Part shown: positions 3,606 to 49,372 of the stretch, in pieces
Layout: every line of letters starts with the position of its first letter
Position numbering within the stretch: the stretch's first letter is position 1
Assembly (NCBI GenBank): GCA_000004985.1
Contig: GG738896.1
DNA from: Naegleria gruberi
Lineage: Eukaryota
Strand: one strand, 5' to 3'
Length of the DNA: 64,000 nucleotides
Translations under genes and position numbers: made by a program
The notes under the pieces: generated by a model
Databases searched by the model: none
Seen by the model: only the letters and a program-made list of their open reading frames with translations
Told to the model about the DNA's origin: nothing

Positions 3606-4732
3606 ATGGTGGACATTATTTTCAATGTTTGTATTCGGGTAGGTTTAATTTATTTGATTGGATACAAATTATTTAGTTGGATTTGCGAGATGGTTTCATT
3701 TGCATTTGTTGAATTGACACTTGTTGTTTCTGTTTTGAGTTTTGGTGTTTTTGTTGGAGTGTTTTATACTGCTTGGTATAATGCTGAGAAAATTACAATG
3801 AGAGATTATATTGGAGTATTTATTACAGTGATCGGAATTTTAATATCTGTCATATTTTCAGACAAAATAGTATGTATTTTGTGAATGGAATTGATTATTA
3901 GAAATAATAATAGTATCAACCATTACATCCAATTACAATCTCCTTCATTTCAGGTCAAATTCTCGACTTTAACATTCCAATTTTATTTGTAATTTTAATT
4001 GTGATTTTACCATTCATTTTGATTGTTTTGGGAATTTTCAGAGTTTTCAAAAATGTCTTTTTCAATTCATCCATTTCTGCAACGTAGGTTGACTTTATAA
4101 TTTTGAAATTTATTATTTTAGATTTGCTGCATCTAATTTTATTATATTTAAATTATTTATTGAACTTGTAAAGACATCTGTTGAAACTGATGATAATCAA
4201 TTCAAACATTGGGCCACTTATTTAATTTTGATATTATCCGTTGTATATACAATTTTACACACTCACTTTACTCAAGTAACTCTTGTCCAATATGAATTTA
4301 GTATGTTTTTAAACATAATTTATTGAAGAATATTCATAATAACTTTTATTAGCCATTTCAAATGTTCTCTATTATACCATCATGTCATTTATTACTGTTT
4401 GTGGAGGTGAATTAATTTTCCGTGAATGGTCAGATACTGAAATATTCCAATTAGTTTTATTATTTATTGGATGGTTTATTCAATTTATTGGAATTTTACT
4501 TTTATTGGGATCTCACACAAATACCAATTCGATTTATCCACTCACTCAACTTAATGATTCACACAATGGTCAACTAGTTAGAGTTTCCAATGTTGATTTG
4601 GACTTTGATTCTGATTCCGATAATGAAAACAGTAAATCTGAAAAACAACAATCTGCCCTTCTCCAAGATGAAGAAGACGAAACCATGTTGGAAGAAACAG
4701 AAGACTTGGAACAACCAAAAACCAATCACTAA
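3606..4732 (+). CDS. Four-exon gene for a ~330-aa polytopic membrane protein of unknown function (weak NIPA/DMT-like flavour)
   Basis: Exons 3606-3869, 3914-4083, 4122-4300, 4353-4732. Donors GTATGT, GTAGGT, GTATGT; acceptors ..aatag, ..ttttag, ..tattag; introns of 44, 38 and 52 nt. The summed CDS is 993 nt, divisible by 3 with consistent phases. The protein is hydrophobic and multi-helical (..GGELIFREWSDTEIFQLVLLFIGWFIQFIGILLLLG..) with an acidic C-terminal tail. Confidence 0.5.
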
Positions 4733-21524: not shown

Positions 21525-22181
21525 ATTACAGCGATCACTATTCATGACAAATCAATAATTTGATGGGATTGTAAAGTATTTTAACATTTCCAATACGGTT
21601 TACAACATGACACTTATTTCAGAAGCATCTTTACAATATAATCAGCTAAATCTAACAAATGATATCATCAAGAGTCAATTATGATCTTCTTCATGCTTTA
21701 AATGTGATACTATTTCATGTGTTTCTGAACAATAGGGACCAGACACTTTGAATATTGTAATAGTTTCGGTTGGAATAGCTTTCAGATCACCAGTCGTCTA
21801 TTGAAAGAATGGAATCATCTTCTTGGCCACCTTTTTCAATACTTCCATTTCAGAGTTGGATCTATTTTTAAAGAAAGAAATATACCATAATGAAATGAAT
21901 GTTTTCAACAATCTGAAGCTAAGAGAGATTGTAAATCATTACTGAATTTGAGGCATGTAGTGTAATTCTAACATCACGATCAGCTCATTTCTCTGAAGTG
22001 TTGGTGGCGAAACTCCACCCATGCCTTTTTTACAAAAATTTCATTAAGAATTTGAATGGAACTTTGGTATAAGTTTTATCTGGTTCAAAACCATCAATTT
22101 TCGAATGGTCTTTTAGTACTCACAAATTAAACTATAACAAATTAAGAGATAGCTCATTATCTTAATTTTTATATCAACAAT

Positions 22182-22250
22182 GGCTACGGCCATATCACGA
22201 TGAATGCACCTCATCCCGTCCGATTTGAGAAGTTAAGCAGTAGTCTTTTT
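22182..22250 (+). pseudogene. Internally deleted 5S rRNA copy (5' ~58 nt plus 3' terminal GTAGTC and the T-run terminator)
   Basis: GGCTACGGCCATATCACGATGAATGCACCTCATCCCGTCCGATTTGAGAAGTTAAGCA is identical to the 5' part of the full 5S copy at 25621-25739(-). It then jumps to ..GTAGTCTTTTT, so ~55 nt of the middle (including the box C region) are missing. Confidence 0.6.
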
Positions 22251-24291: not shown

Positions 24292-25620
24292 GATCTTTTT
24301 GAATTTCCTTATGACTATTGCAGTAAACGCCAAACTCAATTGCATTTCAGTAATTAATGGGATGAAATCATTGTGCAAAGTATGCTGTTGACCTGTTGAT
24401 AAAAAACTTGAAAGTTTTGGGAGTTTTTTCAATCTGTTGGCCAAGGTAGTGAAGAACTCTTTCATTTATGTACCTAAAATGCAAAGAAAGTTCCAAATAG
24501 ATCTGCATGTTCACATGATGAGTGCAAACATATTTTAAATGCTGCCAAAGGACATTTAAATTGTTTAAGTTTCTATTAATTATTAAAAAAATTAAGGTAC
24601 CAATCTGCATGTTCACAAATCCCCCATTCACAAACCATGGCTGGTAAGGAATGCAGCAATCATCTATGAACGAGGAAACCTACAGCGAAGCATGTTTCCA
24701 GTTCGATATCATGCTCAAGATATGTGACTACAGAGTCTTCATCTTGGTTAACCTCAAAGGTCAGATTGACTCAAAAAAGTCGAGTTTATGTATTCCTACA
24801 GAAAAGATCCTGTAGAAGTACAGTCAATGGTTTTATCAAGTTTCATTTGTGAGGTTTGTGATATTGGTTTTGAATGTGTGAAAAGTGAGGTTAAAAAATT
24901 GTGGTACTTTTATGTGAAAAATATAAATTTCGATTCAAGAAAATAATTGAATGTTGATGGCTTCAAGATCAGCTCACAATTTTTAAGAACTTCCTCCTGA
25001 AAGTTGTAAGAAACAACTAATTAAGTGAAGAATTTCCTCATTCCTTGCACAAATACTATTATAATCTGTGAAATGACAAAAAGACAGGTTCCTAATTGAG
25101 ATGAGGTGATATTGATCCTCCCTATGAACTTGTTGATCAAATGAAAATTACATTCATGAATGTTTGCTTCAAAAGTTGAAAGTGGCATTTCCTAAAATAT
25201 AAATAGAAAGAGAGCTGGCTTGAATGTGACAAAATTGTCTCTTGTTCAATTAAAAAAAAAGAAACCTCCTGCAATGAATCTTCAGTCGAGTATTTTCATA
25301 GATTCATTGAGCCCTCTTGTCCAATCAAATCGTTCTAGAAAGAGTGGCGGAGGGCTGATAATTAATGTAGAGGGAGGAAATCCCTGATTGTAACCAAGTA
25401 TTTGCAGTAATGTGAATCCACAGCAGTTAAAAGAGTCTCCTTAATAGTAAACAACAACCCGAACAATTTGGATAAGATTGAATTTACAAGTTTTTCAATA
25501 AAGTTCTTTAAATTGTCAAATGATTTGTATTTAATTTTCTTCAATGTTTGTACATTTCCATTTCAATATTCTCTACATTTCAATATTTAAAGCTGTAAAA
25601 ACAATAAGGTGAAATTAAAA

Positions 25621-25739
25621 AGACTACAGCTTCACAGGTTCCCAAGTTGTCTCCAACCTCAGTACTGATGTGGCTCGACGATGCTTAACTTCTCAAATCG
25701 GACGGGATGAGGTGCATTCATCGTGATATGGCCGTAGCC
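25621..25739 (-). rRNA. 5S ribosomal RNA gene (full length, ~119 nt) with a downstream T-run terminator
   Basis: The reverse complement reads GGCTACGGCCATATCACGATGAATGCACCTCATCCCGTCCGATTTGAGAAGTTAAGCATCGTCGAGCCACATCAGTACTGAGGTTGGAGACAACTTGGGAACCTGTGAAGCTGTAGTCT, followed by TTTTT. This carries the conserved 5S motifs (..CCCGTCCGAT.TGAGAAGTTAAGC..AGTACTG.GG.TGGGAGAC..TGGGAA..). The 5'/3' ends pair as helix I (GGCUAC/GUAGUC). Confidence 0.8.
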
Positions 25740-40237: not shown

Positions 40238-40310
40238 GCCGACATAGCTCAGTTGGGAGAGCGTAAGACTGAAGATCTTAAGGTCCCTGGTTCGATCCCT
40301 GGTGTCGGCA
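40238..40310 (+). tRNA. tRNA-Phe (anticodon GAA), 73 nt, no encoded CCA
   Basis: GCCGACA-TA-GCTC-AGTTGGGA-GAGC-G-TAAGA-CTGAAGA-TCTTA-AGGTC-CCTGG-TTCGATC-CCTGG-TGTCGGC-A. The acceptor, D and anticodon stems pair perfectly. The anticodon loop CUGAAGA gives GAA. The sequence is close to other eukaryotic tRNA-Phe, with one T-T mismatch in the T-stem. It is followed by a T5 Pol III terminator. Confidence 0.85.
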
Positions 40311-43537: not shown

Positions 43538-43987
43538 TTTTTTATAATATTCTTGTATACTAAGAATTAATAAGCTGAAATGATTTTAAGATTTACTTTT
43601 ATTAACTTTTTAAGTAGGGTTATAAGAGAGTATTATAAGAGATCGATCTATTCATAACAATAGAAGCCAATCCCTCTTTGGTCCTTTCCATTAACTTTCT
43701 GGTTATTTCTAAAAACAAGAAATGCTTTATGTTTCTTAATAAAAGGTTCGGAATGATGCAACTAGTACACTGGTTGGAAACATTTACATCTACATCACTT
43801 CATTCCGATATTCGATTCGACACTTCATATCATCATGATTCCGATCCAGAATCAGCAAATTCCGAAATGCTTTTAAAAATGCTACAACACACCCATTTCC
43901 TACCCAAAATCCAATTAAAAAAAATTTCAAACATTCTCTGTACATACACACTCTCAGCTGTTCGCTTAGTAAATAACATACGTAAAA

Positions 43988-46121: not shown

Positions 46122-49100
46122 TTATCTCTTTTCCTTTACAAAGAATCTCAATAAGAGACCAGCTAAAACAATAAAGAAAACAGCAAAGCTTGCAGTGAAA
46201 ATGATATCCGCATAGAATCTTTCGTGGTCCATTCCCAATTCTTTCAGGAAAAAGTCACCATCACCTGGGAAGCTTGGGAAACCTTTTGGATCAATAACGA
46301 TTGGGAATCCGTGCAATTCATTGATGAGAAGGGCTTCATAGGCATAACTAAAGTATGAAAAGTATTTAATCCATGAGAGGTAGACTGGAAGTGAATCAGT
46401 ATTCAACAAGAATCCAGCAAACAACATATTTCCAAGAATTAACAAAATTGAAATCAAGTTAGCAGAAGCAACACTATTAGCAATTGTACCAATACAAATA
46501 CAGAGAGCTCCACTTGCTAAATTGAATAAAATTAAAATGAAAATAAACCAAAAGAAGTGTGAAGTGATTTCTCTCAAACCAATCATCCACTAATAATATT
46601 TTAGATAATTATTTCTATTGTCAAATAATCAATATTGAAAAATACTTACATAAGCAATAGATCCCATAATAATTGGTGGAATGACACGGAGTGGAATTAA
46701 ATCAAAGAAAGTCTTTGAGAAAAAGTATGAAATTGAAAGATAGTATCCATTTGCTCTTTCTCTCACATAAATTGTACGTTCTGTAATAAATAATTCCAAG
46801 CTAGACATGGCAGCAAAGTTCAACAAAGCACACATGAAGAAAATACTACCCATTCTGTTTTGACAAGCTTGGATATTGTTACTTTGCTGGAAGTAAATGG
46901 CACCAAGTAAAAGACCCATGATAATAGCACTCAAATAGTGAGCTGGCATAAGGTAGAAATTTCTGTAAAAGTTACGGAATGATCTCTTAGATAAAATGTA
47001 AAGTTGCGTATAGAACGAGGTGGCATACTCTTGAACCTTCTTGGTGTAAATATTATCTTCTGTCTTTACCAAGAGATTTTGTGATTCTTGATTTTCAGAT
47101 CCATAACCAGATTGTTTGAAAATTGGTTGTTGGTAAGATAAAGATTGATTATTTTGATTAATAGAAGTTCCTTGAGTCTCATTTTCTGACATTTCTGACA
47201 TGACATCTAATAAAAAGTCAGCAGGATTGTATTGAGATGGACAGTCATGACCAAGTTTTGACAAATAATCCAATGATCCTTCAGCACTTCCACTATAGAA
47301 TATTTTACCATCCTTCATTAAGAGTAAATTATCAAATTGTTGGAAAATATTAGAACGAGGTTGATGGATAGAGAATACAATAGTTCTGTTATGTTTAGTG
47401 GCCAGGTCGCAAATAGTCTTGATGGTTGAGACTGCGTGATATGAATCCAATCCCTTAAAAAGTTTGTCATTCATTAATAAAAGTAAAATTACTAACACTT
47501 GTAGGTTCATCCAAGAAGAGAATTTGTGGTGCAATGACTAATTCACAAGCAATACTGACACGACGTTTTTCGCCTCCAGAAATACCTTAAAAAGTTTGTT
47601 ATTCATGAAATAAAAGTAAAATTACTTACCTCTTGTCATGGCATCACCAATCTTTCTATCACGAATATGTGAAATTCCAAGCTCTTCCATAACAGACTCA
47701 ACACGTCTCTTCTTTTCCGTATATGGGACAGTATCAGGTAAACGAAGCTCCGCACTAAACATGATTGATTCAAAAACTGTCAAGGTACCCATTAAATGAT
47801 CATCTGATTGAGATACATAACCAGCAACTCTCTTATATTGGTTATAGTCAATTGGTTTGTTATTAACCAATAATTCTCCAAAAACATCTCCAGATTTAGA
47901 TCTACCAGCAATAATATCCAATAATGATGTTTTACCAGCTCCAGAAGGACCCATAATAGCAGTAACAGTTCCCGGTTTAAAGGTGTGACTCAATCCATGA
48001 AGAAGTGTAATTCTATTCTTGCTCTTGAGATGGAGAGCCCTTTCTCTTTCCTCCTCCTTTTCTTCCTTTGCAATATCTTCCTCATTGACTCCACTAACTT
48101 CCTGGAGAGAATTGATTTTCTTAGCAGTAGTTCTGATAATATAGGTCAAGTTACGAATTTCCAACTTGGCTCCAAATTCATTATTTCCTGTCTTCATCAT
48201 ATCCTCATATTCATGTTTAACCTTTCTAGTTTGAAGTTTAGAATAAATAATACTGAAAATTAATACAATCATGATAGCAACAAAAATTACTGAACCAACA
48301 GCTCCAGCAACAATTTTAGGTAAATCATTTTGTTTTGGTGGTTGAGGTGCAGGAACGTATACATCAACACACTCAGCAGCATGATCACAAGTTGATTGAA
48401 TAACACCAGGGAAGTTTTCATGTTGAACTATTAGAAAAATATTAACAGGTAAATATTTTAACATTGGAATTGAAACTTACTTGAACAAGACTTGGTTTCG
48501 TTATTACACTGTACATTTGCATAACCAGTCATGTGTTCTAATATATACAATACAAACTGGTTATAACATTTTGGAGAAATCATTGAACATGCACAGCCAG
48601 TAGTATATCCACATTTGTATAATACTTCTCCTTTTTCTGGAATTGATAAGACACAATCGTGGAATGTACAATAAAAAGTTTCAGCAAGAGAAGTATCAGA
48701 CTTGTCAAATGATCTGAAATAACAATTTCCACCAGCTGTCTTATTTTCCATTCCATTACAGTCAATTGTGAAATAATTTCCCATGAGAGGTATCATTCTT
48801 TCCGAAGTAACTTCACAACTATAAACCTTTTCTTTCTGTGGAATGTATGATTTATCACAAAAAGCAGCCGAATTGTTCAATCGTTGTTGACAAACGTAAT
48901 CATTACTACACATTCTACAATCCAATCCTTCCCATCCAGGTTGACAAGAACAAACTGGAGATTTATCGTCATCACTACTCGTACTAAATAAATTTCTTCT
49001 TGTGTTCGAATCATCATAAACTTTATCTGTCAATGATTTTCCATTTACACAGTCAATCAAAGAACAATTTCTAATTCCCATGGATAAATCATTCTTGAAA

Positions 49101-49372
49101 CCAGGCAAACAAACACATGTTGTATTATCTGTCGAACAATATCCAGCATTCATACATCTCGCATCACTATCACAAATTGTCCAATCGTATTGTTGTTGTC
49201 CAACAATTAGACTACCACTACTCATCATTATGATCACTAGGAAAATAAATAATACTAAACCACTACCACCGAATTTGAATGAATTATTGTTTGGGTTCTT
49301 CCGAATCCTATGTAGACCATGAGAGATCCCACCATTGGAAGAAGATAATGGGTTGGATAGCGATATCTGCAT
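46122..49372 (-). CDS. ABCG (White-type) half-transporter with an N-terminal signal-anchor plus an EGF-like cysteine-rich ectodomain and an extra TM helix; 5 exons, ~1016 aa
   Basis: Exons 48481-49372, 47630-48427, 47497-47585, 46650-47453, 46122-46589; introns of 53, 44, 43 and 60 nt with donors GTAAGT, GTAAGT, GTTAGT, GTAAGT. The total is 3051 nt, divisible by 3. Exon 1 has a signal anchor ([19 protein letters not shown]) and ~230 aa with more than 30 Cys, including EGF-like [12 protein letters not shown] and [15 protein letters not shown]. Exon 2 has a TM helix, then NBD Walker [18 protein letters not shown]. Exon 3 has the signature [12 protein letters not shown] and Walker [10 protein letters not shown]. 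Exon 4 begins [20 protein letters not shown]. Exons 4-5 carry an ABC2-type 6-TM domain. Confidence 0.8.
47454..47496 (-). repeat. Intron 3 of the ABCG gene, a near-identical copy of intron 2
   Basis: On the minus strand this is gttagtaattttacttttattaatgaatgacaaactttttaag. It is about 85-90% identical to intron 2 (47586-47629: gtaagtaattttacttttatttcatgaataacaaactttttaag). Confidence 0.8.
47586..47629 (-). repeat. Intron 2 of the ABCG gene (paired with the 47454-47496 copy)
   Basis: See 47454-47496. The two copies are separated by the 89-nt exon that encodes the ABC signature and Walker B. Confidence 0.8.

Follow-up and report, generated by a model that had tools for sequence, protein, structure and literature searches.

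Two of the four introns in an ABCG half-transporter gene of the amoeboflagellate Naegleria gruberi are near-identical copies of each other. The gene (NAEGRDRAFT_72254) lies on the minus strand at positions 46122..49372 of a 64,000-nucleotide (nt) stretch of contig GG738896.1, the whole of which was analysed and is called the window below. Its introns 2 and 3 are paralogues that have the same boundaries and orientation, and they occupy sites that are empty in the closest orthologues. A lineage-specific duplication very probably gave rise to the pair. The best combined explanation, same-gene intron duplication (intron transposition) via reverse splicing, is one to which we give a little more than even credence; the reverse-splicing route specifically is held more tentatively, at slightly less than even.

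We built the gene model by removing four short GT-AG introns, which leaves five exons and a product of 1016 amino acids (aa). This product is an ABCG-type half-transporter, in which an N-terminal Cys-rich ectodomain is followed by one transmembrane helix, an ABC ATPase domain and an ABC-2 membrane domain. Intron 1 (48428..48480, 53 nt, phase 1, at aa 297) and intron 4 (46590..46649, 60 nt, phase 0, at aa 861) are ordinary, and the sequence of intron 1 is unrelated to those of introns 2 and 3. Intron 2 (47586..47629, 44 nt, phase 1) has the form GTAAGT...TTTTTAAG and intron 3 (47454..47496, 43 nt, phase 0) the form GTTAGT...TTTTTAAG; all of these, like the exon between the two copies, are on the minus strand. 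In full, intron 2 reads GTAAGTAATTTTACTTTTATTTCATGAATAACAAACTTTTTAAG (44 nt, 47629-47586) and intron 3 reads GTTAGTAATTTTACTTTTATTAATGAATGACAAACTTTTTAAG (43 nt, 47496-47454). They are separated by exon 3 (47497..47585, 89 nt), which codes for the ABC signature motif and Walker B. Intron 2 splits the Gly codon that directly precedes the signature motif ISGGE (between aa 563 and 564), and intron 3 falls in Walker B, between Ser593 and Gly594 of DEPTS/GLD (here and below, a slash within a sequence marks the intron position). The original prediction, made from the letters of the window alone, had quoted the sequences and coordinates of both introns exactly, had placed them ~90 nt apart, and had given their phases as 1 and 0 and their location as the signature/Walker B region; all of this is correct in the spliced model, with an actual spacing of 89 nt.

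In a global alignment introns 2 and 3 are identical at 40 of 44 positions (91%, slightly above the ~85–90% first estimated), and they differ by three substitutions and one 1-nt indel. For comparison we assembled a set of 15 introns, namely the four of the ABCG gene and 11 others from the window that were predicted heuristically by open reading frame (ORF) rescue. The predicted introns of the window are ~40–60 nt long, with GTAAGT, GTATGT, GTTTGT or GTTAGT as donors and mostly TAG, but also AAG and CAG, as acceptors. The remaining 104 pairings within this set have a mean identity of 60% (standard deviation 3.7%) and a maximum of 68%, which places the pair formed by introns 2 and 3 more than 8 standard deviations above them. 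An outlier of this size is not explained by a strong intron consensus. The blastn E-value for the match is 1.9e-9. Each of the two 21-nt halves of the unit, searched with up to 3 mismatches, occurs at these two sites only in the 64 kb window, where shuffled sequences lead one to expect 0.03–0.05 occurrences.

The similarity runs from the G of the GT to the AG, with both copies in the same orientation, and stops no more than 5 nt from the intron borders. The flanking exons were not co-duplicated: exon 3 and the exons next to it each occur once and are collinear with their orthologues. This collinearity, together with the confinement of the similarity to the interval from GT to AG, led us to reject a segmental duplication of exon plus intron. 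The flanks had been described as unrelated, which is essentially right; they share only a short microhomology (ACAAG upstream, G.ATT downstream; 12 of 24 positions match) of a kind that ~2% of random in-frame site pairs in the gene reach, and which is thus weakly significant. The junctions themselves read ACAAGAG/GTATT at the intron 2 site and ACAAGT/GGATT at the intron 3 site. Intron 2 is bordered at each junction by a direct repeat of 5 nt, AGGTA, which is inseparable from the splice-site consensus, and intron 3 has no target-site duplication beyond a 1-nt junction repeat or ambiguity. Terminal inverted repeats were looked for in the unit and none was found. We also considered a structured or hairpin element and rejected it: the folds of introns 2 and 3 reach minimum free energies of -1.6 and -3.7 kcal/mol respectively (z-scores against shuffled sequence: +0.51 and -0.43), so that neither intron folds better than its shuffles.

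Introns 2 and 3 have the sequence features of ordinary, functional U2-type spliceosomal introns. Each has GTAAGT or GTTAGT as its 5′ splice site and closes with a run of T followed by AAG, and a branch-like TNAY motif stands ~13 nt before the end. Neither length (44 and 43 nt) is a multiple of three. Retention of intron 2 would give GGT AAG TAA, and the ORF at 47622-48464 accordingly ends in ...TRGK and a stop; retention of intron 3 would lead to TGA after 9 codons. Since each intron interrupts signature/Walker B coding sequence and carries a stop codon, both would have to be spliced. With the introns removed, the 120-aa stretch over exon 3 aligns without gaps to the uninterrupted sequences of N. 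lovaniensis (87% identity) and of an environmental Naegleria-like contig (83%). Introns 2 and 3 are also both removed in the reference product, the 818-aa protein EFC39908.1. A peptide spanning both junctions lies inside that product, and the two were therefore already introns in the reference annotation.

Empty sites in relatives and relative age

Both intron positions are empty in the two closest orthologues, the locus of N. lovaniensis (L001) and the environmental Naegleria-like contig (L002). In L002 the empty sites read AGAGGTAT and ACAAGTGGA, the same as the exon junctions of N. gruberi. More distant homologues agree: neither the nearest outgroup ORFs, P0013 and P0015, nor a Dissophora gene is interrupted at either site. 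The original prediction of an intron duplication or gain is upheld by this comparison, in which paralogous GT-AG copies, with no duplication of exons, stand at sites that are empty in near and distant relatives alike. At the level of the protein, the N. gruberi model is 72% identical to P0001 of N. lovaniensis and 68% identical to P0002, and it is collinear with both.

The other intron positions of the gene have different distributions. The position at aa297 (intron 1) is occupied in N. gruberi and N. lovaniensis and empty in L002, that at aa861 (intron 4) is occupied in all three, and a further intron at aa955 is present in N. lovaniensis and L002 and absent from N. gruberi. Intron turnover in this gene is thus high across Naegleria; aa861 is the only position common to all three lineages, and orthologous intron sequences cannot be aligned. 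The introns of the relatives lie at 3736-3796 and 5984-6045 in L001 and at ~2809-2845 and ~3128-3166 in L002.

Between Naegleria species, the orthologous introns 1 and 4 are 47–59% identical, no better than unrelated introns. Orthologous introns are saturated at this level, whereas introns 2 and 3 stand at 91%, and the duplication therefore took place well after the species split. A second point of reference comes from a close environmental strain, represented by contigs L123, L124, L125 and L128 (ERR1078381 / ERZ929261, PRJEB11402), which are 98.3–99.2% identical to the window. Intron 2 is present with one substitution in L123 and L128 and was recovered from the environmental sample independently by two assemblers. 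Position 23 of this intron is A in the environmental strain and in intron 3, and C in intron 2 of strain NEG-M, which places the substitution to C in NEG-M intron 2 after the duplication. Intron sequences of the environmental strain and NEG-M differ at 3 of 157 positions (~2%), as against 3–4 of 44 (7–9%) between introns 2 and 3; on this comparison the duplication is several-fold older than the strain split. The duplication is young relative to species divergence and is not ongoing. The suggestion that a gain had been 'caught in action' does not survive these figures, given copies that differ at 7–9% and an intron 2 that is already present in a strain with introns ~2% diverged.

The environmental contigs stop on either side of intron 3: L123 and L128 end 41 nt before it, and L124 and L125 begin 21 nt after it. 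The sample ERR1078381 contains at least two haplotypes, with L124 and L125 differing at several sites, and its coverage is low. L128 runs into Illumina adapter at its end.

Possible routes from one intron to two

In the explanation that we favour, one intron would have been copied from GT to AG, in the same orientation, to a site 89 nt away, after the split from the N. lovaniensis and L002 lineages. The excised intron RNA would have reverse-spliced into a nearby site of its own transcript, one that resembled the intron's own exon junction (ACAAGAG/GTATT as compared with ACAAGT/GGATT). The re-interrupted RNA would then have been reverse-transcribed, and the resulting complementary DNA (cDNA) would have replaced the genomic copy through homologous recombination. 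The copies would afterwards have drifted apart by the three substitutions and one indel. The sequence comparisons establish that the introns are paralogues with exact boundaries, that the orthologues lack them and how old the duplication is in relative terms; that RNA was the intermediate, and which intron served as the source, we infer. Reverse splicing is favoured because this route predicts an insert with exact intron boundaries that needs only later point changes. Duplicated introns within one gene, without duplication of exons, are a described class that has been read as transposition within a single transcript (PMC3609843).

Several points weigh against this explanation. The intron 3 site (site B) ends in AGT/ rather than in the AG/ of a canonical proto-splice site. 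The case for splicing, like that for reverse splicing, is drawn from sequence. Because the three Naegleria lineages are about equidistant (17–18% protein divergence over conserved columns), polarity is not given by the tree; the apparent direction, a gain, rests on the outgroup ORFs and on sequence identity. Introns have also been lost elsewhere in the ABCG gene. In the close environmental strain only intron 2 could be scored, as the region 47433-47536 is without read coverage in that sample. The genome of N. gruberi is ~41 Mb, and the search for further copies covered 64 kb, or ~0.16% of it. Finally, a 23-nt intergenic segment at 43592-43614, described below, would fit a DNA-level mobile element better, if it is a partial third copy.

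Among the alternatives, a duplication at the level of DNA fares best, and we regard it as unlikely. A break or template switch at site B would have been repaired from the region of intron 2, 133 bp away, with priming by microhomology, and selection would have kept the product that spliced precisely. The source is indeed nearby on the same DNA, the ACAAG / G.ATT flank microhomology (p ~0.02) could have served as primer, and the AGGTA repeat borders intron 2 on both sides. Priming at ACAAG, however, predicts ACAAG-AG-GTAAGT and with it a frameshifted spliced product, and the observed ACAAGT/GTTAGT needs extra changes. The similarity coincides exactly with the extent of the intron, the AGGTA repeat is indistinguishable from splice-site consensus, and the junction repeat at intron 3 is 1 nt only; these features, too, argue against repair of a break.

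The original prediction had invoked an introner-like element, and one alternative along this line is that each of the two introns arose by insertion of a dispersed, short, low-copy mobile element resembling an introner or a miniature inverted-repeat transposable element. We consider this improbable. Near-identical introns with unrelated flanks are what such an element would leave behind, and a family of fewer than ~1000 copies would easily be missed in a window that is so small a part of the genome. The 64 kb window nonetheless holds no further full copy of the unit, and a scan of viral contigs with the near-full unit returned zero matches. We also scanned metagenome contigs with the shared 18-mer AGTAATTTTACTTTTATT, a pattern too short to inform: it gave at least 120 random AT-rich matches, and among those listed no match reaches the unit's 3′ half. 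The copies themselves do not resemble a mobile element, as their 43–44 nt lie within the ordinary 40–60 nt range of introns in the window; a stable fold (z +0.5 and -0.4) and terminal inverted repeats are lacking, and intron 3 shows no convincing target-site duplication. In a published screen, N. gruberi strain NEG-M was scored with 'ie' = 0, that is, without an introner family of at least four introns (Gozashti et al. 2022, PMC9860276, Suppl. Table 4). That screen was an all-against-all search of annotated introns, with a paralogue filter that would remove a same-gene pair (PMC9860276), and the annotation it used includes introns 2 and 3. By that screen and within the 64 kb searched here, an introner-like family is not supported.

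The segment at 43592..43614 on the plus strand (TTTACTTTTATTAACTTTTTAAG, 23 nt) is a possible partial, non-intronic relative of the unit and the one candidate for an internally deleted copy. It is intergenic, upstream of HSP90, 3.9 kb off and on the strand opposite to the introns. It matches both ends of the unit and is without ~11 internal nt and without the 5′ splice site. Its half-motifs each recur elsewhere in AT-rich DNA, and the gapped pattern that describes it was picked after the match had been seen, so that the shuffle expectation of zero overstates its significance. The segment may be a relic or the source of the unit, or a coincidence of AT-rich sequence, and we do not count it in favour of a family. 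It is a long shot that the 44-nt unit is a still-active minimal introner of low copy number, with further copies and with 43592-43614 as a relic, or that intron 3 is polymorphic for presence and absence among strains. If either were true, N. gruberi would offer a culturable discoban system in which to watch intron gain and to test reverse splicing against DNA insertion directly.

A different possibility, very improbable in our view, is that the ancestor of Naegleria already had introns at both positions, which the other lineages lost, perhaps jointly by cDNA recombination, with the similarity of the two introns produced by gene conversion. The gene does lose introns (aa955 is missing in N. gruberi and aa297 in L002), and adjacent introns can disappear together. 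An ABCG homologue of the rotifer Adineta steineri (L127, 985-1048) even has an intron 1 nt away from site B. The outgroup ORFs, however, lack both introns. The rotifer intron is a phase-1 intron in the Gly codon of DEPTTG/LD and so differs in phase from intron 3; it seems to have been inserted independently, close to a conserved Gly codon. Its position suggests that conserved ...AG/GG... codons may act as recurrent insertion or proto-splice sites. Gene conversion faces its own difficulty, in that segments of 44 nt with unrelated flanks have no homology from which conversion could start. Orthologous Naegleria introns keep no similarity, so that two old, unrelated introns would share nothing to convert. 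Chance similarity, an assembly artefact or a segmental tandem duplication has a negligible probability: the sequence is AT-rich and of low complexity, and an ACTTTT(T)A motif recurs in both halves of the unit, yet the shuffle, BLAST and intron-pair statistics effectively refute chance, two assemblers recovered intron 2 from the environmental sample, and exon 3 and the exons beside it occur once each, collinear with the orthologues.

Reference annotation and other features of the window

The reference model of the gene, EFC39908.1, looks truncated at both ends relative to our 1016-aa model. It begins at an internal Met that corresponds to residue 50, and, having missed intron 4, it runs through this intron into a stop (...AYVSIFQY), leaving out the last 155 residues, which include the ABC-2 membrane helices. 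The missing C-terminal residues are backed by the orthologues of N. lovaniensis and L002, and the final-exon ORF that holds them (46122-46586) is present as a separate ORF in the environmental contigs. The identifiers of the gene (NAEGRDRAFT_72254, EFC39908.1 and UniProt D2VTC8) were assigned via the neighbouring genes and EFC39908.1. Exact protein matches identify these neighbours as HSP90 (EFC39839.1 / XP_002672583.1), an RCC1-like protein (EFC39909.1) and EFC39907.1. The genes that flank the ABCG gene are not alike between species; they are RCC1-like and HSP90 in N. gruberi and ArfGap and PhoD in N. lovaniensis.

In the clustered protein set the N. gruberi ABCG protein belongs to the 90% cluster that contains P0121, the representative of which (P0120) is an unrelated 56-aa GC-rich ORF. 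This odd representative is the probable cause of the homologue search missing the window's own protein. Two near-identical cluster representatives, P0118 and P0129, did not come up in that search either.

The window also contains several genes for structural RNAs. A complete 5S rRNA gene lies on the minus strand at 25621-25739, and 3.4 kb from it, at 22179-22239 on the plus strand, 61 nt of its 5′ half recur as a perfect inverted copy; this copy is probably a truncated 5S fragment or pseudogene. Between the two is a U3 snoRNA gene (24599-24827, minus strand). A tRNA-Phe (GAA) gene is located at 40238-40310 on the plus strand.

Comparison with known cases of intron gain

Clear cases of intron copying in which relatives have kept the empty sites are few, and they form the main empirical support for models of intron transposition. 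The Naegleria case is unusually clean, in that the copy is exact from GT to AG, its source is 89 nt away in the same transcript, and invariant ATPase motifs fix its boundaries. It comes from a deep-branching, intron-poor lineage without a reported introner family. It leaves the current picture of intron gain unchanged.

In the Daphnia model, introns are reportedly gained by double-strand-break repair with short flanking direct repeats, and the new introns are said to be mostly unique filler and not copies of neighbouring introns. The Naegleria pair resembles these gains in being recent and lineage-specific and in having short bordering repeats (AGGTA at intron 2). It differs from them in that this repeat coincides with the splice consensus, intron 3 is without one, and the new intron is a copy of its neighbour.

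The transposon-derived introners of Micromonas, Aureococcus, dinoflagellates and other groups are likewise repeated units that are inserted and spliced as introns, and they favour aquatic unicellular hosts (PMC9860276). Their families range from four to thousands of members, often have target-site duplications or terminal inverted repeats, and include copies in both orientations and in intergenic sequence (PMC9860276). The Naegleria pair, by contrast, consists of two copies in the same gene and the same orientation, with no clear target-site duplication. The introner-like elements of Dothideomycetes and other fungi are, like the Naegleria introns, mutually similar spliceosomal introns tied to lineage-specific gains. 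Unlike them, the fungal elements number in the hundreds, are spread over unrelated genes, exceed regular introns in length and are predicted to fold stably (PMC3609843).

The pair also has counterparts among the same-gene duplicated ('SGD') introns of fungi described by van der Burgt, Collemare and co-workers, half of which lack co-duplication of exons; they are few in number and have no special secondary structure (PMC3609843). The same review points to analogous cases, among them three intron gains in C. elegans and, in Oikopleura dioica, introns that are near-identical (PMC3609843). In our search of the literature we found no earlier case of same-gene intron duplication in Heterolobosea. 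Both the fungal SGD introns and the Naegleria pair are near-identical introns of regular size at different positions of one gene. The Naegleria introns differ from the fungal ones in their host, a discoban amoeboflagellate (Heterolobosea), in their very short length of 43–44 nt, and in their placement only 89 nt apart within the most conserved motifs of the ATPase.

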